From: Escherichia coli
GTDB taxonomy: Bacteria; Pseudomonadota; Gammaproteobacteria; Enterobacterales; Enterobacteriaceae
Assembly: GCF_003790525.1 (NCBI RefSeq)
Contig: NZ_CP033635.1
DNA: 64,000 nucleotides
Direction: 5' to 3' (one strand)
Shown here: positions 22,467 to 60,274 of the stretch, piece after piece
How positions within the stretch are numbered: position 1 is the first letter of the stretch
Layout: every line of letters starts with the position of its first letter
Made by a program: the position numbers and the translations under genes
Notes under the pieces: generated by a model
Database searches by the model: none
Told to the model about the DNA's origin: nothing
The model's input: only the letters and a program-made list of their open reading frames with translations

Positions 22467-23873
22467 TCAGAAGATGGTGAATGGTGCGATTACCATAAAT
22501 TTCACGTCACGCTCATCCTGGAAGATGTTGCCGTAACCACCGCCCCAGCTTGGGATGTCGGAGTGGTTGTCGTATTCGGTGAAGTGCAGTTTGAACATCG
22601 TGCCTTTGGCGCGACCGTCCTGAATGGTGTACACCGCATCCAGGCTGTAGGCAGACTCTTCAATAGTCCGGTTTTTATCGTAGTACGCATCCGGATTGCT
22701 CTGCCAGGTCGCAGGTTTAGCATCCCATGCGTAAACGTAGGAAGCGCCGATGGCGAAGCCTGGAAGATTCCAGTTTTTCAGGTCATACATCGCACCGAAG
22801 AAGATCGCTTTTTCGCCGTTGGCGTTGAAGTCGGAACGGTTATCCCACCAGATATCCAGGCGACCGTTCGAGGAAGCGTAGGTTGGAGTCATACGTTGCA
22901 GGAAGTATCCCTGCTGACCGTCAGCCTTAACCCAGGTACCTTCGAGGCGCAAATCCACTACGTCAGCCGCCCGGTAACCAAAGGTCAACGCCTGCAGCCA
23001 GGCGGTGCCGTCATAAAGATCGTTGACGCTGCGATCGTCAACTTTATCGCGCGTACCATAGAACTGGTAGCTGGTGGTTAACGGGCTACCGGCGATATCA
23101 AATTTGTAGCTGGCTTTGGCAAAATATTGATCGATATACCCTTCGGCCTGACCAAACGCCGCTTCCAGTACGAAGTTATTTTTGAAGTCGTACTTCGCCC
23201 CAAGGGAGTGTAGATAATCAACTTTGGTGGTTTTATCGTTCTGATAAAACTCATCCATTTCCAGATGCCACGGTGCTTTGTATTCGTTGGTCCACATGTA
23301 GGAGAAACTCAACGCACCAGCATCGCCATAATCAAAATTCGCCCCGGCTTCCGCCCCCTGATAAGTACCCGGCATAAAGCTCCAGTGCGGCGCTAACAGC
23401 GTTTGACCAGTTGGCTGAATGTAACCTGCCCTCGCCCAAACCGGACCGTATTTAAATTTAGCCGCCGCTTTATACAGACTTATACCGCTTTTATCGCCGG
23501 ACCAGTCTTCGTCATAGGCTTTATTACTTTTTGAAAACGCGATTTCGTTCGGGTGAGAGCTGTCGCCGTTTTCTGCCATTTCAATCGCTGTAAACGCGGC
23601 AATATCCAGACCGAACATATCAGCGGCATAGCCAGACTGAAAATCGAGATTAGCGTTCCAGGTGGAGTGAGAAAGGTTGGTTTTATATTTGTCGCCGTCG
23701 GTAACATCTTTACGGTCGCGTTCACGCTGCCAGTAATAGATACCGCCGGTTAAGGTTGAATCGTCGATGAATCCTTCGGCGCGAGCCTCCGGAATTGCCA
23801 TAAAGCCCGACATAGCTGTAACACCGGCGATAGCCAGCGCCAGCGTACTACGTTTGCCACTAAACGCACGCAT
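22467..23873 (-). CDS. chiP: Chitooligosaccharide porin ChiP (YbfM), OprD-like outer-membrane barrel
   Basis: 468 aa with signal peptide, aromatic-rich beta-barrel sequence, C-terminal F. Confidence 0.9.
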
Positions 23874-24224
23874 GGGTTAATCCTCTTTGACGTATAAATT
23901 GCTGCACCAAAGGTGAACAGCGAAAAAAATAAAAATTAAAAAAGTAGCGTTGAGAAAAGTCTCGCTGACTACAGGAACAGACTATTTTTCGCGACGCGAA
24001 TTATCAATCTCTTTCTGTAACCAGAATGTAATAACATGAGCAACCGCACATATTTTGATGATTTTTGTTACAAGGCTTAAGTTTGCAGTTGAAAGGCTTG
24101 CAGAAGAATAAAAACGTGAAATTCCAGCAAGATGAAAGCGGTTACATTTTATTTAATTATGATTTGTAATTTTAAATTTGCTTTATGAATAAATTACGAA
24201 GCGGAATTAATTCGCGAAGAAAAG

Positions 24225-24256
24225 CAGAAAAAAAACGCCGCGGAGCGCGGCGTTTG
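24225..24256 (-). terminator. glnS rho-independent terminator
   Basis: AACGCCGCG-gag-CGCGGCGTT hairpin with T-run on the minus strand. Confidence 0.65.
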
Positions 24257-24275
24257 GGTTTGTTTGCTATTTTTT

Positions 24276-24309
24276 GCCGGATGCGGCGTGAACGCTCTAT
24301 CCGACAACG
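24276..24309. repeat. REP element just downstream of glnS
   Basis: GCCGGATGCGGCGTGAACGCTCTATCCGACAACG. Confidence 0.65.
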
Positions 24310-24314
24310 TAAAC

Positions 24315-25979
24315 TTACTCGCCTACTTTCGCCCAGGTATCACGCAGCCCAACGGTGCGGTTAAATACCGGTTTTTCCGCCGTAGAATGGCGGCTGTCGA
24401 GGCAGAAGTAACCTTCACGCTCAAACTGGAATGCTTTACCCGCAACCGCATCTTTCAGCGACGGTTCAGCAAAGCCCTGTTTGATCACCAGCGATTCCGG
24501 GTTAATCACCGACAGGAAATCATCCGCAGCACCAGGGTTCGGCACGCTGAACAGACGGTCATACAAACGGATTTCAACCGGCAGCGCATGTGCCGCGCTC
24601 ACCCAGTGAATAACACCTTTGACTTTACGACCATCTGCCGGATCTTTGCTTAAGGTGTCGGCGTCATAAGTACAGAAGATGGTGGTGATATTGCCTTCGG
24701 CATCTTTCTCCACGCGTTCTGCCTTAATGACGTAAGCATTACGCAGACGCACTTCTTTACCCAGCACCAGACGTTTGTACTGCTTGTTAGCTTCTTCGCG
24801 GAAATCGGCGCGATCGATCCAAATCTCACCGCTAAATGGCACCTGGCGGCTGCCCATTTCCGGTTTATTCGGATGGTTCGGCATGGTAACCATTTCGCCT
24901 TCGCCCTGGTAGTTTTCGATAACCAGTTTCACCGGATCGATAACCGCCATTGCGCGCGGCGCATTTTCGTTGAGATCTTCACGGATGCAGGATTCCAGCG
25001 ACGCCATCTCAATGGTGTTGTCCTGCTTGGTCACGCCGATGCGTTTGCAGAACTCACGAATAGAAGCTGCAGTGTAACCACGACGACGCAGACCGGAAAT
25101 GGTCGGCATACGCGGGTCATCCCAGCCTTCAACGTGCTTGTCGGTCACCAGCAGGTTCAGCTTACGCTTGGACATCACAGTGTATTCCAGATTCAGGCGC
25201 GAGAATTCGTACTGGCGCGGGTGAACAGGAATGGTGATGTTGTCCAGCACCCAGTCGTACAGGCGACGGTTGTCCTGGAACTCAAGCGTACACAGAGAGT
25301 GCGTAATACCTTCCAGCGCATCGCTGATGCAGTGGGTAAAGTCGTACATCGGGTAGATGCACCACTTGTTGCCAGTCTGGTGGTGTTCAGCAAACTTAAT
25401 GCGGTACAGCACCGGATCGCGCATCACGATAAACGGCGAAGCCATGTCGATCTTCGCACGCAGGCAGGCTTTACCTTCTTCAAAACCGCCGGTACGCATT
25501 TTCTCGAACAGCGCCAGGTTCTCTTCAACGCTGCGATCGCGGTACGGGCTGTTTTTACCCGGCTGCGTCAGGGTGCCACGGTATTCGCGGATCTGTTCCG
25601 GTGTCAGTTCATCAACGTACGCCAGGCCTTTATTGATCAGTTCGATCGCATAGGCGTGGAGCTGATCAAAATAATCGGAGGAGTAACGGACGTTACCAGA
25701 CCAGTGAAAACCTAACCACTCAACGTCGTTTTTGATCGACTCAACATACTCGATATCTTCTTTTACCGGGTTAGTGTCGTCGAAACGCAGGTTGCACTGG
25801 CCTTTATAGTCCTGGGCGATCCCGAAGTTCAGGCAGATAGATTTCGCATGGCCAATATGCAGATAGCCATTCGGCTCCGGCGGGAAACGGGTGTGTACTG
25901 TGGTGTGCTTACCACTGGCCAGATCTTCATCGATGATCTGACGAATAAAGTTAGTCGGGCGGGCTTCTGCCTCACTCAT
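24315..25979 (-). CDS. glnS: Glutaminyl-tRNA synthetase
   Basis: 554 aa; class I HIGH motif ([12 protein letters not shown]) and KMSKS-like VMSKR. Confidence 0.95.
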
Positions 25980-26181: not shown

Positions 26182-28128
26182 TTACTTTTTGATTTCATAC
26201 AGCGGCGTTTGACCCGCCACGACATGGCCCTGAGCTTTAATGATCAAGCCGCTGAAATCGTCGATATTGCTGCAAACCACCGGGCTAATCATCGAGCGGG
26301 CGTTTTCGTTCAGATAATCCAGATCCATTTCCAGAATCGGTTGCCCTGCGCTTACTTGCGCGCCCTCTTCCACCAGACGTTTAAAGCCTTTACCTTCCAG
26401 CGCTACGGTGTCGATACCCATATGGACGACAATCTCCGCGCCTTTTTCAGTTTCCAGGCAGAATGCGTGGTTGGTGTTGAAGATTTTCACGATAGTCCCT
26501 GCGGCTGGTGATACGACGATTTTATCTGTCGGTTTCACCGCCACACCGTCACCCACCGCTTTGCTGGCGAATGCTTCGTCAGGAACCTGATCCAGTGCCA
26601 CAACATCACCGGTAATCGGCGATACCAGCTCCGCGATAGATACTGCGTTTGGTACAGCCTGCGGTTTTGCTACAGGCGCGGCAGTTGCCGGAGCAGTTTC
26701 AGCAGAGGCAGCGGCTACCGGACCGCGGGCAACGACTTTCTTCATCGCATCGCCGATGGATTCTGCTTTCGCGCCAACAATCACCTGAATAGTCTGTTTG
26801 TTCAGTTTCACTACCCCAGAAGCACCCAGACGTTTACACATCGTATCGTTAACGCGGGCAGAGTCAGCCACTGTAAGGCGCAGACGGGTGATACAGGCGT
26901 CAATTGCTTTCAGGTTGTCAGTGCCGCCAACCGCAGCAATATAGTTGGTTGCCAGTTGATTGAGACCTTCTTCAGTATTGCTGTTAGCCTCTTCAGTAAC
27001 GATCTCGTCTTCTTTATCTTCACGACCTGGCGTTTTCAGGTTGAACATGCGGATAACCAAACTGAACACCACGAAGTAGATAGCGAAGAAGACAACCCCC
27101 ATCACCAGCAGCATCCAGACGTTCTGGCTGGCGGCCGGCAGGTTATACATCAACGCGTAGTCGATAGCCCCCGCAGAGAAAGAGAAGCCGGCATGGATAC
27201 CCAGCAACGTTGCCACAAACAGGCTGATACCGGTCAGCAGTGCGTGCAGGAGGTACAGCAGCGGTGCAAGGAACATGAACAGGAATTCCAGCGGCTCAGT
27301 CACACCGGTCAGGAACGCAGTAACAGCAACAGAAAGCAGCATCCCGCCAACCATCGGACGGCGCTCTTTCGGTGCTGCAAAGTACATCGCCAGCGCCGCA
27401 CCCGGCAGACCGAACATCATGATCGGGAAGAAGCCGGACATGAACATCCCCGCGGTGCCGTCACCGGCATAGAAGCGGTTGATGTCACCGTGAAAAACCG
27501 TACCCGCCGCGTTGGTGAATTCACCAATCTGGAACCAGGCGATGGTGTTCAGTACCTGATGCAGACCGGTTGGGATCAGCAGACGGTTGATGAAACCAAA
27601 GATACCGGAACCCAGCGCGCCCGCAGAAACGATCCACTCGCCGCCTGCATGGATAGCGTGCTGTACCGGCGGCCAGACGTAACCAAAAATGGCCGCCAGC
27701 ACCAGGCAGAAGAAGCCGGTGGCAATCGGCACAAAGCGTTTGCCGCCGAAGAAACTCAGGAAGTCCGGCAGTTTAATATCGGACCAACGGTTATAAGCTG
27801 CGCCACCAACCAGACCGGTAATGATACCCGCCAGTACACCCATGTTAATTTCTGGGTTGATGGTCACCATCGCTTTGGTTAACACAAAGTAACCTACCGC
27901 ACCCGCCAGTGCCGCCGCACCTGCGCTGTCTTTCGACCAGCTGGATGCCACACCGATGGCGAAGATTAATGCGAGGTTATCAAAAATCGCACCGCCCGCC
28001 TGGGCAATAAACGCAACGTTAAGTAAATCTGGCTGACCGAATCGCAGCAACAGCGCCGCCACCGGCAGCACCGCGATAGGGAGCTGTAACGCCCTACCGA
28101 GTCGCTGGAAAAAACCTAAAATATTCAT
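26182..28128 (-). CDS. nagE: PTS N-acetylglucosamine-specific EIICBA
   Basis: 648 aa; EIIC membrane domain, EIIB Cys region, EIIA C-terminus. Confidence 0.95.
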   Translation of the reverse strand: MNILGFFQRLGRALQLPIAVLPVAALLLRFGQPDLLNVAFIAQAGGAIFDNLALIFAIGVASSWSKDSAGAAALAGAVGYFVLTKAMVTINPEINMGVLAGIITGLVGGAAYNRWSDIKLPDFLSFFGGKRFVPIATGFFCLVLAAIFGYVWPPVQHAIHAGGEWIVSAGALGSGIFGFINRLLIPTGLHQVLNTIAWFQIGEFTNAAGTVFHGDINRFYAGDGTAGMFMSGFFPIMMFGLPGAALAMYFAAPKERRPMVGGMLLSVAVTAFLTGVTEPLEFLFMFLAPLLYLLHALLTGISLFVATLLGIHAGFSFSAGAIDYALMYNLPAASQNVWMLLVMGVVFFAIYFVVFSLVIRMFNLKTPGREDKEDEIVTEEANSNTEEGLNQLATNYIAAVGGTDNLKAIDACITRLRLTVADSARVNDTMCKRLGASGVVKLNKQTIQVIVGAKAESIGDAMKKVVARGPVAAASAETAPATAAPVAKPQAVPNAVSIAELVSPITGDVVALDQVPDEAFASKAVGDGVAVKPTDKIVVSPAAGTIVKIFNTNHAFCLETEKGAEIVVHMGIDTVALEGKGFKRLVEEGAQVSAGQPILEMDLDYLNENARSMISPVVCSNIDDFSGLIIKAQGHVVAGQTPLYEIKK

Positions 28129-28246: not shown

Positions 28247-28370
28247 GAAAATTTAATTCGTATCGCAAATTAAACGCGTGTCTTTTGTGAGTTTTGTCAC
28301 CAAATATCGTTATCATCACTCCCTTTTACTGGCTAAACCAGAAAACTTATTTTATCATTCAAAAAATCAG
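28247..28370. promoter_or_regulatory. nagE/nagB divergent control region: CRP site flanked by two candidate NagC operators
   Basis: CRP-like TGTGAgttttgTCAC at 28286..28300; palindromic TTTAATTCGTATCGCAAATTAAA at 28251..28273; AT-rich TTATTTTATCATTCAAAAAATCA near 28346..28368. Confidence 0.45.
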
Positions 28371-28460
28371 GTCGGATTGACGCCTGTCTGCGCAAATCCA
28401 GGTTACGCTTAAAGATGCCTAATCCGCCAACGGCTTACATTTTACTTATTGAGGTGAATA

Positions 28461-30469
<2,009 letters not shown>

Positions 30470-30477
30470 GAGAAAGT

Positions 30478-31698
30478 ATGACACCAGGCGGACAAGCTCA
30501 GATAGGTAATGTTGATCTCGTAAAACAGCTTAACAGCGCGGCGGTTTATCGCCTGATTGACCAGTACGGGCCAATCTCGCGGATTCAGATTGCCGAGCAA
30601 AGTCAGCTTGCCCCCGCCAGCGTAACCAAAATTACGCGTCAGCTTATCGAACGCGGGCTGATCAAAGAAGTTGATCAGCAGGCCTCCACCGGGGGCCGCC
30701 GCGCTATCTCTATCGTCACCGAAACCCGCAATTTCCACGCAATCGGCGTACGGCTTGGTCGTCACGACGCCACCATCACTCTGTTTGATCTTAGTAGCAA
30801 AGTGCTGGCAGAAGAACATTACCCGCTGCCGGAACGTACCCAGCAGACGCTGGAACATGCCCTGCTGAATGCCATTGCTCAGTTTATTGATAGCTACCAG
30901 CGCAAGCTGCGCGAGCTGATCGCCATTTCCGTGATCCTGCCAGGGCTTGTTGACCCGGACAGCGGTAAAATTCATTACATGCCGCATATTCAGGTGGAAA
31001 ACTGGGGGCTGGTAGAAGCACTGGAAGAGCGTTTTAAAGTGACCTGTTTTGTCGGCCACGATATCCGCAGTCTGGCGCTGGCAGAGCACTACTTCGGTGC
31101 AAGTCAGGATTGCGAAGACTCCATTCTGGTGCGTGTCCATCGCGGAACCGGGGCCGGGATTATCTCTAACGGGCGAATTTTTATCGGGCGCAACGGCAAC
31201 GTCGGTGAAATTGGCCATATTCAGGTCGAACCGCTGGGTGAACGCTGCCACTGTGGCAACTTTGGCTGCCTGGAAACTATCGCCGCCAACGCTGCCATTG
31301 AACAACGGGTGTTGAATCTGTTAAAGCAGGGCTACCAGAGCCGCGTGCCGCTGGACGACTGCACCATCAAAACTATCTGCAAAGCCGCGAACAAAGGCGA
31401 TAGCCTGGCGTCGGAAGTGATTGAGTATGTCGGTCGTCATCTGGGCAAAACCATCGCCATTGCCATCAACCTGTTTAACCCGCAAAAGATTGTTATTGCC
31501 GGAGAAATCACCGAAGCCGATAAAGTGCTGCTCCCTGCTATTGAAAGCTGCATTAATACCCAGGCGCTGAAGGCGTTTCGTACTAATCTGCCGGTGGTAC
31601 GTTCTGAGCTGGATCACCGCTCGGCAATCGGCGCTTTTGCGCTGGTAAAACGCGCCATGCTCAACGGTATTTTGCTCCAGCATTTGCTGGAAAATTAA
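30478..31698 (+). CDS. nagC: ROK-family transcriptional repressor NagC
   Basis: 406 aa; N-terminal HTH, ROK sugar-kinase-like domain with CxCGxxGC. Confidence 0.95.
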   Translation: MTPGGQAQIGNVDLVKQLNSAAVYRLIDQYGPISRIQIAEQSQLAPASVTKITRQLIERGLIKEVDQQASTGGRRAISIVTETRNFHAIGVRLGRHDATITLFDLSSKVLAEEHYPLPERTQQTLEHALLNAIAQFIDSYQRKLRELIAISVILPGLVDPDSGKIHYMPHIQVENWGLVEALEERFKVTCFVGHDIRSLALAEHYFGASQDCEDSILVRVHRGTGAGIISNGRIFIGRNGNVGEIGHIQVEPLGERCHCGNFGCLETIAANAAIEQRVLNLLKQGYQSRVPLDDCTIKTICKAANKGDSLASEVIEYVGRHLGKTIAIAINLFNPQKIVIAGEITEADKVLLPAIESCINTQALKAFRTNLPVVRSELDHRSAIGAFALVKRAMLNGILLQHLLEN

Positions 31699-34799: not shown

Positions 34800-34876
34800 G
34801 GCTACGTAGCTCAGTTGGTTAGAGCACATCACTCATAATGATGGGGTCACAGGTTCGAATCCCGTCGTAGCCACCA
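34800..34876 (+). tRNA. metT: tRNA-Met (elongator, CAU)
   Basis: GGCTACGTAGCTCAGTTGGTTAGAGC...CTCATAA...GGTTCGAATCC...CCA; cloverleaf readable. Confidence 0.95.
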
Positions 34877-34884
34877 TCTTTTTT

Positions 34885-34969
34885 GCGGGAGTGGCGAAAT
34901 TGGTAGACGCACCAGATTTAGGTTCTGGCGCCGCAAGGTGTGCGAGTTCAAGTCTCGCCTCCCGCACCA
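34885..34969 (+). tRNA. leuW: tRNA-Leu (UAG), long variable arm
   Basis: GCGGGAGTGGCGAAATTGGTAGACGC...GATTTAGGTTC...CCA, 85 nt. Confidence 0.9.
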
Positions 34970-34992
34970 TTCACCAGAAAGCGTTGTACGGA

Positions 34993-35067
34993 TGGGGTAT
35001 CGCCAAGCGGTAAGGCACCGGTTTTTGATACCGGCATTCCCTGGTTCGAATCCAGGTACCCCAGCCA
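34993..35067 (+). tRNA. glnU: tRNA-Gln (UUG)
   Basis: TGGGGTATCGCCAAGCGGTAAGGCACCGGTTTTTGATACCGG...CCA. Confidence 0.9.
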
Positions 35068-35101
35068 TCTTCTTCGAGTAAGCGGTTCACCGCCCGGTTA
35101 T

Positions 35102-35176
35102 TGGGGTATCGCCAAGCGGTAAGGCACCGGTTTTTGATACCGGCATTCCCTGGTTCGAATCCAGGTACCCCAGCCA
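35102..35176 (+). tRNA. glnW: tRNA-Gln (UUG), second copy
   Basis: Identical to the preceding tRNA-Gln(UUG). Confidence 0.9.
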
Positions 35177-35191
35177 TCGAAGAAACAATCT

Positions 35192-35268
35192 GGCTACGTA
35201 GCTCAGTTGGTTAGAGCACATCACTCATAATGATGGGGTCACAGGTTCGAATCCCGTCGTAGCCACCA
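35192..35268 (+). tRNA. metU: tRNA-Met (elongator, CAU), second copy
   Basis: Identical to metT copy. Confidence 0.95.
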
Positions 35269-35316
35269 AATTCTGAATGTGTCGAATATGTTCGGCAAAT
35301 TCAAAAACCAATTTGT

Positions 35317-35391
35317 TGGGGTATCGCCAAGCGGTAAGGCACCGGATTCTGATTCCGGCATTCCGAGGTTCGAATCCTCGTACCCCAGCCA
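35317..35391 (+). tRNA. glnV: tRNA-Gln (CUG)
   Basis: TGGGGTATCGCCAAGCGGTAAGGCACCGGATTCTGATTCCGG...CCA; anticodon CTG. Confidence 0.9.
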
Positions 35392-35428
35392 ATTTATTCA
35401 AGACACTTACCTTGTAAGTGCACCCAGT

Positions 35429-35503
35429 TGGGGTATCGCCAAGCGGTAAGGCACCGGATTCTGATTCCGGCATTCCGAGGTTCGAATCCTCGTACCCCAG
35501 CCA
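35429..35503 (+). tRNA. glnX: tRNA-Gln (CUG), second copy
   Basis: Identical to glnV copy. Confidence 0.9.
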
Positions 35504-43048: not shown

Positions 43049-43957
43049 ATGCAATTACGTAAACCTGCCACAGCAATCCTGGCCCTGGCGCTTTCCGCAG
43101 GACTGGCACAGGCAGATGACGCCGCCCCGGCAGCAGGCAGTACGCTGGACAAAATCGCCAAAAACGGTGTGATTGTCGTCGGTCACCGTGAATCTTCAGT
43201 ACCTTTCTCTTATTACGACAATCAGCAAAAAGTGGTGGGTTACTCGCAGGATTACTCCAACGCCATTGTTGAAGCAGTGAAAAAGAAACTCAACAAACCG
43301 GACTTGCAGGTGAAATTGATTCCGATCACCTCACAAAACCGTATTCCGCTGCTGCAAAACGGCACTTTCGATTTTGAATGTGGTTCTACCACCAACAACG
43401 TCGAACGCCAAAAACAGGCGGCTTTCTCCGACACTATTTTCGTGGTCGGTACGCGCCTGCTGACAAAAAAAGGCGGCGATATTAAAGATTTTGCCGATCT
43501 GAAAGACAAAGCCGTCGTAGTCACTTCCGGCACCACCTCTGAAGTTTTGCTCAACAAACTGAATGAAGAGCAAAAAATGAACATGCGCATCATCAGCGCC
43601 AAAGATCACGGTGACTCTTTCCGTACCCTGGAAAGCGGTCGTGCCGTTGCCTTTATGATGGATGATGCTCTGCTGGCTGGTGAACGTGCGAAAGCGAAGA
43701 AACCAGACAACTGGGAAATCGTCGGCAAGCCGCAGTCTCAGGAAGCCTACGGTTGCATGTTGCGTAAAGACGATCCGCAGTTCAAAAAGCTGATGGATGA
43801 CACTATCGCTCAGGTGCAGACCTCCGGTGAAGCGGAAAAATGGTTTGATAAATGGTTCAAAAACCCAATTCCGCCGAAAAACCTGAACATGAATTTCGAA
43901 CTGTCGGACGAAATGAAAGCACTGTTCAAAGAACCGAATGACAAGGCACTGAACTAA
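43049..43957 (+). CDS. gltI: Glutamate/aspartate periplasmic binding protein
   Basis: 302 aa from MQLRKPATAILALALSAGLAQA (signal peptide); ORF-track start 42974 is an extension through the 5' UTR. Confidence 0.9.
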   Translation: MQLRKPATAILALALSAGLAQADDAAPAAGSTLDKIAKNGVIVVGHRESSVPFSYYDNQQKVVGYSQDYSNAIVEAVKKKLNKPDLQVKLIPITSQNRIPLLQNGTFDFECGSTTNNVERQKQAAFSDTIFVVGTRLLTKKGGDIKDFADLKDKAVVVTSGTTSEVLLNKLNEEQKMNMRIISAKDHGDSFRTLESGRAVAFMMDDALLAGERAKAKKPDNWEIVGKPQSQEAYGCMLRKDDPQFKKLMDDTIAQVQTSGEAEKWFDKWFKNPIPPKNLNMNFELSDEMKALFKEPNDKALN

Positions 43958-44113
43958 TTACAAGAACCAGGGGCGGAAATTCCAGCCCTCTCGATTGTTA
44001 CGTAGCACGGACAGACTATACGCCTGATGGTCGTTCCCCATCGGGCCTGAAAACCGCAATACGCTGGGTAACAATCTTCGAGGGTAGCAGTTAACGCTGC
44101 TACCCTCTTTTTT
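43958..44113 (+). ncRNA. sroC: SroC sRNA region (gltI-gltJ intergenic, processed from gltIJKL mRNA)
   Basis: 169-bp intergenic region ending in strong hairpin GAGGGTAGCAG-ttaac-GCTGCTACCCTC plus TTTTTT at 44081..44113; 5' boundary not determinable from sequence. Confidence 0.5.
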
Positions 44114-44126
44114 CTGGAGTAGATTT

Positions 44127-54299: not shown

Positions 54300-55277
54300 A
54301 TGATTTTTACGTCAAGTTGCTGCGATAATTTATCAATAGAAAAGATTGTTAAACGTGCTGAAAAAGGCGATAGCGAGGCTCAATATATTGTTGGGTTTTA
54401 TTATAATCGCGATAGCGCAATTGACTCTCCGGACGACGAAAAAGCCTTCTACTGGCTGAAGCTTGCCGCTGAACAAGGCCATTGTGAAGCACAATATTCC
54501 TTAGGGCGGAAATACTCCGAGGATAAAAGCCGTCATAAAGATAATGAGCAAGCCATCTTTTGGCTGAAAAAAGCTGCCCTACAAGGCCATACTTTCGCTT
54601 CCAACGCCCTTGGCTGGATACTGGATCGTGGAGAAGACCCCAACTATAAAGAAGCGGTTGCCTGGTATCAGATAGCCGCGGAGAGCGGAATGCCTTATGC
54701 GCAAAATAATCTTGGATGGATGTACAGAAATGGTAACGGAGTCGCACAAGACTATGCGCTGGCATTTTTCTGGTACAAACAAGCTGCATTACAAGGCCAT
54801 AGTTACGCGCAAGACAACCTGGCCGATCTCTATAAAGACGGAGAAGGCGTTGCTCAAAACAAGACACTCGCCGCATTCTGGTATTTGAAAAGCGCACAGC
54901 AGGGTAATCGGCATGCCCAGTTTCAAATTGCATGGGATTATAACGCTGGCGAAGGGGTGGACCAGGACTATAAGCAAGCGATGTACTGGTATCTGAAGGC
55001 TGCCGCTCAGGAAAGCGTCGGCGCTTACGTCAACATCGGTTATATGTATAAACATGGACAAGGCGTTGAGAAAGATTATCAGGCCGCCTTTGAATGGTTT
55101 ATGAAAGCCGCTGAATGCAATGACGCCACTGCCTGGTATAACCTGGCCATTATGTATCACTACGGAGAAGGAAGACCTGTCGATCTCCGACAGGCTCTCG
55201 ACCTGTATCGTAAAGTTCAGGCATCCGGTACCAGGGATGTCAGTCAAGAAATCCGTGAGATTGAAGATTTACTGTAA
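54300..55277 (+). CDS. ybeQ: Sel1-repeat protein YbeQ
   Basis: 325 aa from ATG 54300 (better RBS spacing than 54294); at least 7 Sel1-like repeats. Confidence 0.85.
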   Translation: MIFTSSCCDNLSIEKIVKRAEKGDSEAQYIVGFYYNRDSAIDSPDDEKAFYWLKLAAEQGHCEAQYSLGRKYSEDKSRHKDNEQAIFWLKKAALQGHTFASNALGWILDRGEDPNYKEAVAWYQIAAESGMPYAQNNLGWMYRNGNGVAQDYALAFFWYKQAALQGHSYAQDNLADLYKDGEGVAQNKTLAAFWYLKSAQQGNRHAQFQIAWDYNAGEGVDQDYKQAMYWYLKAAAQESVGAYVNIGYMYKHGQGVEKDYQAAFEWFMKAAECNDATAWYNLAIMYHYGEGRPVDLRQALDLYRKVQASGTRDVSQEIREIEDLL

Positions 55278-59243: not shown

Positions 59244-60274
59244 TGATTCGGTTGTACCCGGAACAACTCCGCGCGCAGCTCAATGAAGGGCTGCGCGCGG
59301 CGTATCTTTTACTTGGTAACGATCCTCTGTTATTGCAGGAAAGCCAGGACGCTGTTCGTCAGGTCGCTGCGGCACAAGGATTCGAAGAACACCACACTTT
59401 TTCCATTGATCCCAACACTGACTGGAATGCGATCTTTTCGTTATGCCAGGCTATGAGTCTGTTTGCCAGTCGACAAACGCTATTGCTGTTGTTACCAGAA
59501 AACGGACCGAATGCGGCGATCAATGAACAACTTCTCACACTCACCGGACTTCTGCATGACGACCTGCTGTTGATCGTCCGCGGTAATAAATTAAGCAAAG
59601 CGCAAGAAAATGCCGCCTGGTTTACTGCTCTTGCGAATCGCAGCGTGCAGGTGACCTGTCAGACACCGGAGCAGGCTCAGCTTCCCCGCTGGGTTGCTGC
59701 GCGTGCAAAACAGCTCAACTTAGAACTGGATGACGCTGCAAATCAGGTGCTCTGCTACTGTTATGAAGGTAACCTGCTGGCGCTGGCCCAGGCACTGGAG
59801 CGTTTATCGCTGCTCTGGCCAGACGGCAAACTGACATTACCGCGCGTTGAACAGGCGGTGAATGATGCCGCGCATTTCACCCCTTTTCATTGGGTTGATG
59901 CTTTGTTGATGGGAAAAAGTAAGCGCGCGTTGCATATTCTTCAGCAACTGCGTCTGGAAGGCAGCGAACCGGTTATTTTGTTGCGCACATTACAACGTGA
60001 ACTGTTGTTACTGGTTAACCTGAAACGCCAGTCTGCCCATATGCCACTGCGTGCATTGTTTGATAAGCATCGGGTATGGCAGAACCGCCGGGGCATGATG
60101 GGCGAGGCGTTAAATCGCTTAAGCCAGCCGCAGTTACGTCAGGCCGTGCAACTCCTGACACGAACGGAACTCACCCTCAAACAAGATTACGGTCAGTCAG
60201 TGTGGGCAGAGCTGGAAGGGTTATCTCTTCTGTTGTGCCATAAACCCCTGGCGGACGTATTTATCGACGGTTGA
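59243..60274 (+). CDS. holA: DNA polymerase III delta subunit
   Basis: 343 aa [30 protein letters not shown]. Confidence 0.9.

Follow-up and report, generated by a model that had tools for sequence, protein, structure and literature searches.

The closest described counterpart of the chiP regulatory region is the divergent nagE-nagB pair, at which the repressor NagC acts on 23-bp quasi-palindromic operators. In sites for NagC and its paralogue Mlc, only the TT at positions -6,-5 and the AA at +5,+6 are totally conserved, and mutating these bases abolishes repression; positions -11 and +11 need not be palindromic, and a C or G at -11 and/or +11 marks high-affinity NagC sites relative to Mlc sites (PMC4288165). 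The wild-type nagE operator, which carries A at -11 and T at +11, is not repressed by NagC alone and needs a cooperative loop with the nagB operator (PMC4288165). Two further systems share components with chiP. At galP, as at chiP, both NagC control (of a galP fusion) and a GalR operator are documented, GalR sites having been reported at both genes (PMC5110547). The chbB gene belongs to the same chitosugar regulon, is likewise controlled by ChiX (PMC4098024), and has a distal NagC operator, CTTAATTATCTTCGCGAATTATT.

Much of the control of chiP is already known. Its proximal operator has been listed since 2010, under ybfM, the older gene name used in that list (PMC3098098), and control by NagC, GalR and ChiX was published by 2014. 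The initial annotation of this DNA had noted that chiP is reported to be repressed by NagC, and the literature agrees: transcriptional repression by NagC is stated in PMC4098024, and a 2026 preprint, which also states it, describes a fusion at the chiP locus that is adequately expressed only with nagC inactivated (bioRxiv 10.64898/2026.05.02.722398). GalR controls chiPQ according to PMC5110547, whose text leaves NagC unmentioned; the text of PMC12021133 mentions neither NagC nor chiP.

Two motifs containing TTCGCGA had been proposed, with low confidence, as the NagC operators of chiP. We examined them in the window, that is, the whole 64-kb stretch of E. coli DNA presented above, and in orthologous loci. 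Set beside the described systems, chiP would by analogy belong to the two-operator repression scheme of the NagC regulon, with a putative loop; nagE-nagB is its closest parallel, and galP the parallel for the combination with GalR. We consider it likely that each motif marks a NagC operator of the chiP promoter, the proximal one strong and the distal one weak and brought in by looping. With nagE-nagB the region shares the repressor, the 23-bp quasi-palindrome, the TT/AA bases at +/-5,6 and the pairing of a strong operator with a weak one bearing A/T at +/-11, and the loop dependence demonstrated for nagE may by analogy extend to chiP. It differs in that the chiP operators lie 223 bp apart, further than the nag pair in the window, and control a single promoter, and in that the putative chiP loop would enclose CRP-like and GalR sites.

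The motifs lie in the 441-bp, 63% A+T intergenic region between glnS and chiP, a position that follows from the arrangement of genes on the minus strand (Table 1). The nagBACD operon lies beyond nagE in divergent orientation, and nagC itself is within the window, some 6.5 kb from the motifs. E. coli SMS-3-5 and several further E. coli chromosomes match the 801-bp stretch 23700..24500 with 100% identity and have glnS and chiP annotated there. An Rfam search of the glnS-chiP intergenic region returned no RNA family; elsewhere in the window it placed sroC RNA at 43953..44115 (175 bits) and seven clustered tRNA genes at 34800..35500, both usual for that part of the E. coli chromosome. In the E. 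coli window the T-run of the glnS terminator abuts the distal operator. Relative to window positions 24262..24314, K-12 (L082) has about 130 bp extra between the glnS stop codon and the glnS terminator, a segment that carries GCCGGATG/CCGGCA-type (REP-like) repeats; the remaining intergenic region of K-12 has few positions that differ from the window.

Table 1. Positions in the window of the genes, transcripts and control sites discussed (positions relative to the chiP transcription start are signed).
Feature	Coordinates	Strand	Sequence, position or basis
chiP (chitoporin; regulated gene)	22467..23873	-	NCBIfam NF047822 ChiP equivalog, 852 bits; annotation of identical genomes
chiP 5' UTR, equivalent of ChiZ RNA	23874..23972	-	chiZ annotation
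ChiX pairing site	23892..23881	-	CGTCAAAGAGGA; over the Shine-Dalgarno sequence; 12-nt perfect complement of ChiX nt 45-56
chiP core promoter	23979..24007	-	-35 TTGATA (24007..24002), 17-bp spacer, -10 TAGTCT (23984..23979); hexamers read from sequence
chiP proximal NagC operator, with motif 1	23983..24005	-	GATAATTCGCGTCGCGAAAAATA; spans -33..-11, centre -22
CRP-like site	24035..24050	-	TGTGC-GGTTGC-TCATG; centre -70.5
GalR operator	24132..24147	-	ATGTAACCGCTTTCAT; centre -167.5, between the two motifs
Distal NagC operator, probably auxiliary, with motif 2	24206..24228	-	TCTGCTTTTCTTCGCGAATTAAT; centre -245, 223 bp from proximal centre
glnS intrinsic terminator	24225..24255	-	10-bp stem, 7 G-C pairs, T-run; conserved in alignment A1
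glnS	24315..25979	-	
nagE	26182..28128	-	
nagE operator (divergent nag operators)	28252..28274		
nagB operator (divergent nag operators)	28346..28368		
nagC (repressor gene)	30478..31698	+	NCBIfam NF047937 TransRegNagC equivalog, 719 bits (cut-off 650)

The strings named in the initial annotation were found where it had put them, motif 1 (TTTTCGCGACGCGAA) at 23986..24000 and motif 2 (TTAATTCGCGAAG) at 24207..24219, and the nagE element with which it had compared them, TTTAATTCGTATCGCAAATTAAA, coincides with the nagE operator. The heptamer TTCGCGA itself occurs 13 times on both strands of the 64 kb, where about 8 occurrences are expected from equal base frequencies; because it is common, a test must use the whole 23-bp site. 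To that end we derived a symmetrised NagC matrix from the known E. coli operators in the FITBAR paper (PMC3098098), using nine of the ten and leaving out the chiP site, and took as chance controls 100 dinucleotide-preserving shuffles of the whole window together with shuffles of the intergenic region. With this leave-one-out matrix, the 23-mer around motif 1 scores 23.0 bits and ranks first in the 64 kb. It exceeds two operators on which the matrix had been trained, that of nagE marginally and that of nagB clearly. The best score in the 100 window shuffles was 19.7 bits and the mean best 13.4, and motif 1 is thus far beyond chance. The 23-mer around motif 2 scores 5.2-5.5 bits, ranks 30th in the window and is equalled in 82% of shuffled intergenic regions; in the window sequence alone it is not more than chance. 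The matrix scan that had been suggested as a check therefore singled out motif 1 but not motif 2, and the support for motif 2, its own score lying within chance, rests on orthologues. Chance alone is expected to give about 0.2 matches of at least 15 bits and 18 matches of at least 5.5 bits per window, so that the moderate matches of 11-12 bits at 59972..59994, 54324..54346 and 28441..28463 are probably noise.

Motif 1 lies within the proximal NagC operator, which overlaps the chiP promoter and passes every membership feature tested. Among the known NagC operators tabulated in PMC3098098 (Table 1), its 23-mer appears letter for letter as "ybfM proximal", and a full-text literature search for both operator sequences matched the FITBAR paper only, and for motif 1 only; the word "proximal" implies that the curators knew of a second site. 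Positions 6,7 of the site are T,T and positions 17,18 are A,A, which gives TT/AA at +/-5,6, and with G at -11 and A at +11 it has the C/G character of high-affinity NagC sites. All 79 loci whose upstream sequence was usable have it, nearly always unchanged.

The transcription start, whose mapping had been proposed as a further check, is placed at 23972 by aligning to the window the 5' end of K-12 chiZ (b4808; 708236 in NC_000913.3, RefSeq annotation). The promoter hexamers upstream of it agree with the consensus at 8 of 12 positions, and the promoter block is invariant in alignment A1. A consensus promoter scan did not report this promoter, which is too weak for it, and gave as its sole output an AT-rich match at 24175..24146. 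The proximal operator overlaps the last four bases of the -35 hexamer and the first two of the -10 hexamer, so a NagC dimer bound there would occupy the core promoter and exclude RNA polymerase. An operator placed over the core promoter is the classic geometry of steric repression.

The distal 23-mer in E. coli is of a different quality. Here too positions 6,7 are T,T and 17,18 are A,A, leaving the four obligatory TT/AA positions intact, and its right half scores 10.7 bits, inside the range of known operators (7.4-12.3 bits); its left half scores -6.1 bits. T stands at both -11 and +11, where high-affinity NagC sites have C or G, and in this the site resembles the weak wild-type nagE operator that needs a looped partner. 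Given that the TT/AA bases are kept and that A/T occupies +/-11 as in nagE, we read motif 2 as a weak auxiliary rather than an independent operator, most likely one to which NagC would bind through DNA looping, as judged from its sequence and the nagE precedent. The distal operator of chbB shares with it the 12-mer CTTCGCGAATTA and differs in having two good half-sites (20.3 bits), compared with one in the E. coli chiP site.

To place both motifs in a wider frame, we scanned one genome per species across the Enterobacteriaceae and obtained 80 ChiP-encoding loci (83-99% identity); the 79 loci compared here are the window and the 78 loci with enough upstream sequence. Absence of the motifs from orthologous chiP leaders had been named as an observation that would tell against them, and the loci show the opposite, motif 1 being present in all 79 and the right half of motif 2, GCGAATTAAT with at most one mismatch, in 68 of the 79, at 162-245 bp upstream of the proximal operator. 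This anchor was not found in the other 11, mainly members of the Enterobacter cloacae group; two loci beyond the 68 (L002 and L052) have good matrix matches at the orthologous distal position. In Klebsiella, Raoultella, Kosakonia, Kluyvera and others the distal orthologues are full NagC sites reaching 22.9 bits, as exemplified by TTATTTTCGCGATGCGAATTAAT (18.2 bits) and TTTAATTCGCGACGAGAATTAAT (22.9 bits). With the 68 sites aligned on the anchor, information content averages 1.36 bits per column over the 23 positions of the operator, and 0.13 and 0.24 bits over the 25-nt flanks. Positions 6-11 (TTcGCG), which were not used in anchoring, are strongly conserved, with T6 and T7 invariant in the 68 orthologues. 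As aligned, the distal element is a conserved island amid DNA that otherwise cannot be aligned.

Six Enterobacter/Lelliottia loci lacking GCGAATTAAT (L039, L043, L045, L048, L051 and L079) carry instead an AT-rich NagC-like site, CTTATTTT...AAAGTTT, that scores 10-17 bits. Its distance to the proximal operator, which lies downstream, is 191-195 bp, a spacing roughly in phase with the classes described below, and it may represent operator turnover.

The distance between the centres of the two operators, 223 bp or about 21 helical turns in the window, varies in steps. Across the loci it falls into classes of 200-203, 210-214, 221-226, 232-238 and 245 bp, with single loci at 162 and 170 bp and empty gaps between. 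A Rayleigh test on eight class means, which are partly related and not fully independent, gave R = 0.78 at a period of 10.55 bp with p of about 0.017, this value being reached in 1.7% of trials with random draws from 160-250 bp when periods of 10-11.6 bp were scanned; the 20 distinct spacings, which are not independent either, gave p of about 0.002. The distance from the glnS terminator to the distal site ranges from -3 to 79 bp across loci, and such variability indicates that the distal site tracks the promoter and not the terminator. Spacing in steps of a helical turn gives moderate and indirect support, short of proof, to a face-of-helix constraint and hence to a predicted repression loop.

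The main remaining rival is that only the proximal operator works in E. coli, motif 2 having no role today and being either the decaying remnant of an ancestral distal operator or a half-site that arose by chance; we regard this as unlikely. In its favour are the chance-level score of the E. coli distal site (about 5 bits) and its poor left half, and distal scores of 5-16 bits in Escherichia, Salmonella and Citrobacter fall below the 16-23 bits of Klebsiella, Raoultella and Kosakonia. A strong single NagC operator (nagEso), moreover, can repress without a partner, and E. coli may therefore be able to do without the distal site. Against this rival stand the Escherichia loci themselves: the right half and the TT at -6,-5 are kept in the window, in K-12 and in three further loci, two of them from other species, at spacings of 221-224 bp, and a fifth Escherichia locus, L002, which lacks the GCGAATTAAT anchor, still has a site of 18.9 bits at 223 bp. 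From the spacing classes it follows that helical phase is still under selection, and weak operators with A/T at +/-11 do work when looped, as at nagE (PMC4288165).

On another reading, the working upstream partner in E. coli would be a different sequence of the intergenic region, ATTTATTCATAAAGCAAATTTAA at 24194..24172 (centre -211). By score this is the better candidate: at 14.6-15.1 bits it ranks fourth in the window, behind the three known operators, and only 6.6% of shuffled intergenic regions equal it, a figure to be read against the 63% A+T of the region, which inflates matrix matches of this kind. The sequence is, however, confined to some Escherichia and is not conserved elsewhere; in K-12 three differences reduce it to 6.2 bits and remove one obligatory T, and at a spacing of 189 bp it departs by about 0.3 turn from the phase of the conserved sites. 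Being unconserved, broken in K-12 and out of phase, it was rejected as the true distal operator, a role we hold to be very improbable for it. Least probable of all, to the point of being nearly negligible, is that the sites are bound by Mlc and not by NagC. The logos of the two paralogues are essentially indistinguishable and A/T at both +/-11, as in the distal site, is a signature of Mlc (PMC4288165), but position -11 of the proximal site is G and its curated assignment is to NagC (PMC3098098), chiP expression depends on inactivation of nagC (bioRxiv 10.64898/2026.05.02.722398), and no cross-regulation occurs at physiological protein levels (PMC4288165). The interpretation given in the initial annotation, of NagC operators and a ChiX target, is thus supported, with the qualification that it holds for motif 1 as a curated, top-ranking site and for motif 2 by way of orthologues and their likely meaning, the score of the latter in E. 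coli being within chance.

What the 79 loci add to the published picture is small: a near-invariant proximal operator and CRP-like site, a distal island, spacing in helical turns, and lineage-specific decay of a distal half-site. In the spacing steps, natural variation lends support to a repression loop. We regard the result as an aid to annotation and a positive control for NagC scans, and not as a discovery.

Two further control sites lie between the NagC operators. The GalR operator contains TGTAACCGCTTTCAT, the reverse complement of ATGAAAGCGGTTACA. The latter was assigned to chiP as a GalR site by ChIP-chip, the peak probe lying 167 bp upstream of the K-12 start (PMC5110547, Table 3). Here the comparison with galP has its limit, as a strict GalR pattern occurs in only 26 of the 79 chiP loci while the proximal NagC site is universal. 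The CRP-like site is more constant, TGTG-N7-TCA being found in every one of the 79 loci at a fixed 48.5 bp from the centre of the proximal operator, with a variable spacer sequence. As ybfM is among the CRP targets found by genomic SELEX (PMC3105977), we infer from position and pattern that the -70.5 element may be a class I CRP site, both the assignment and the class being tentative; such a site would fit the weak promoter hexamers.

Taken together, we propose that chiP is transcribed from a weak sigma-70 promoter that is probably CRP-dependent, and that a NagC dimer on the high-affinity, quasi-palindromic proximal operator would fill the promoter spacer, overlap both hexamers and block RNA polymerase. 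The weak distal site, with one good half-site and A/T at +/-11, would be occupied cooperatively through a loop to the proximal operator, in the manner of nagE and nagB, and this loop would enclose the CRP-like and GalR sites. GlcNAc-6-P arising from the metabolism of chitosugars or GlcNAc would release NagC, and pairing of ChiX at the chiP Shine-Dalgarno sequence would provide a second, post-transcriptional lock. A more elaborate version is conceivable, though we rate it as rather improbable: the outer half of an ancestral distal operator would have decayed in Escherichia, Salmonella and Citrobacter with its phase kept, repression there would run through the NagC half-site and GalR (at -167.5), both bridged to proximal NagC, and a new AT-rich site about 193 bp upstream would have taken the place of the distal operator in the Enterobacter cloacae group. 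If true, this replacement would amount to operator turnover under a constant loop geometry.

The second statement of the initial annotation, that the chiP 5' UTR is a ChiX target, also stands. Pairing of ChiX with chiP is documented (PMC7815308), as is ChiZ, the RNA that corresponds to the 5' UTR (PMC7815308), and the 12-nt perfect complement in Table 1 falls inside the stretch suggested for a pairing check, 23874..23940. The ChiX sequence was confirmed at 84 of 84 positions in the ybaK-ybaP spacer of E. coli genomes. With the entire leader and the entire ChiX as input, RNAduplex returned an extended duplex of no meaning, which was exceeded by shuffled leaders, and the pairing site was taken from a search for the longest exact complementarity.

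At the start of the leader and of ChiZ (23944..23972, minus strand) lies a 5'-terminal hairpin, GTAG...CTAC, followed by a long U-rich tract. Compensatory changes occur in three of its five basal pairs across 16 genera, and the hairpin is probably a stem that protects the 5' end of ChiZ or a module that binds Hfq. Further downstream in the leader, six loci (L011, L017, L019, L020, L022 and L025, from Citrobacter and one MAG labelled Raoultella) carry an insertion of about 110-125 bp in the chiP 5' UTR, directly 5' of the ChiX pairing site and flanked by repeated TATAC, which may be an ERIC/IRU-like element.
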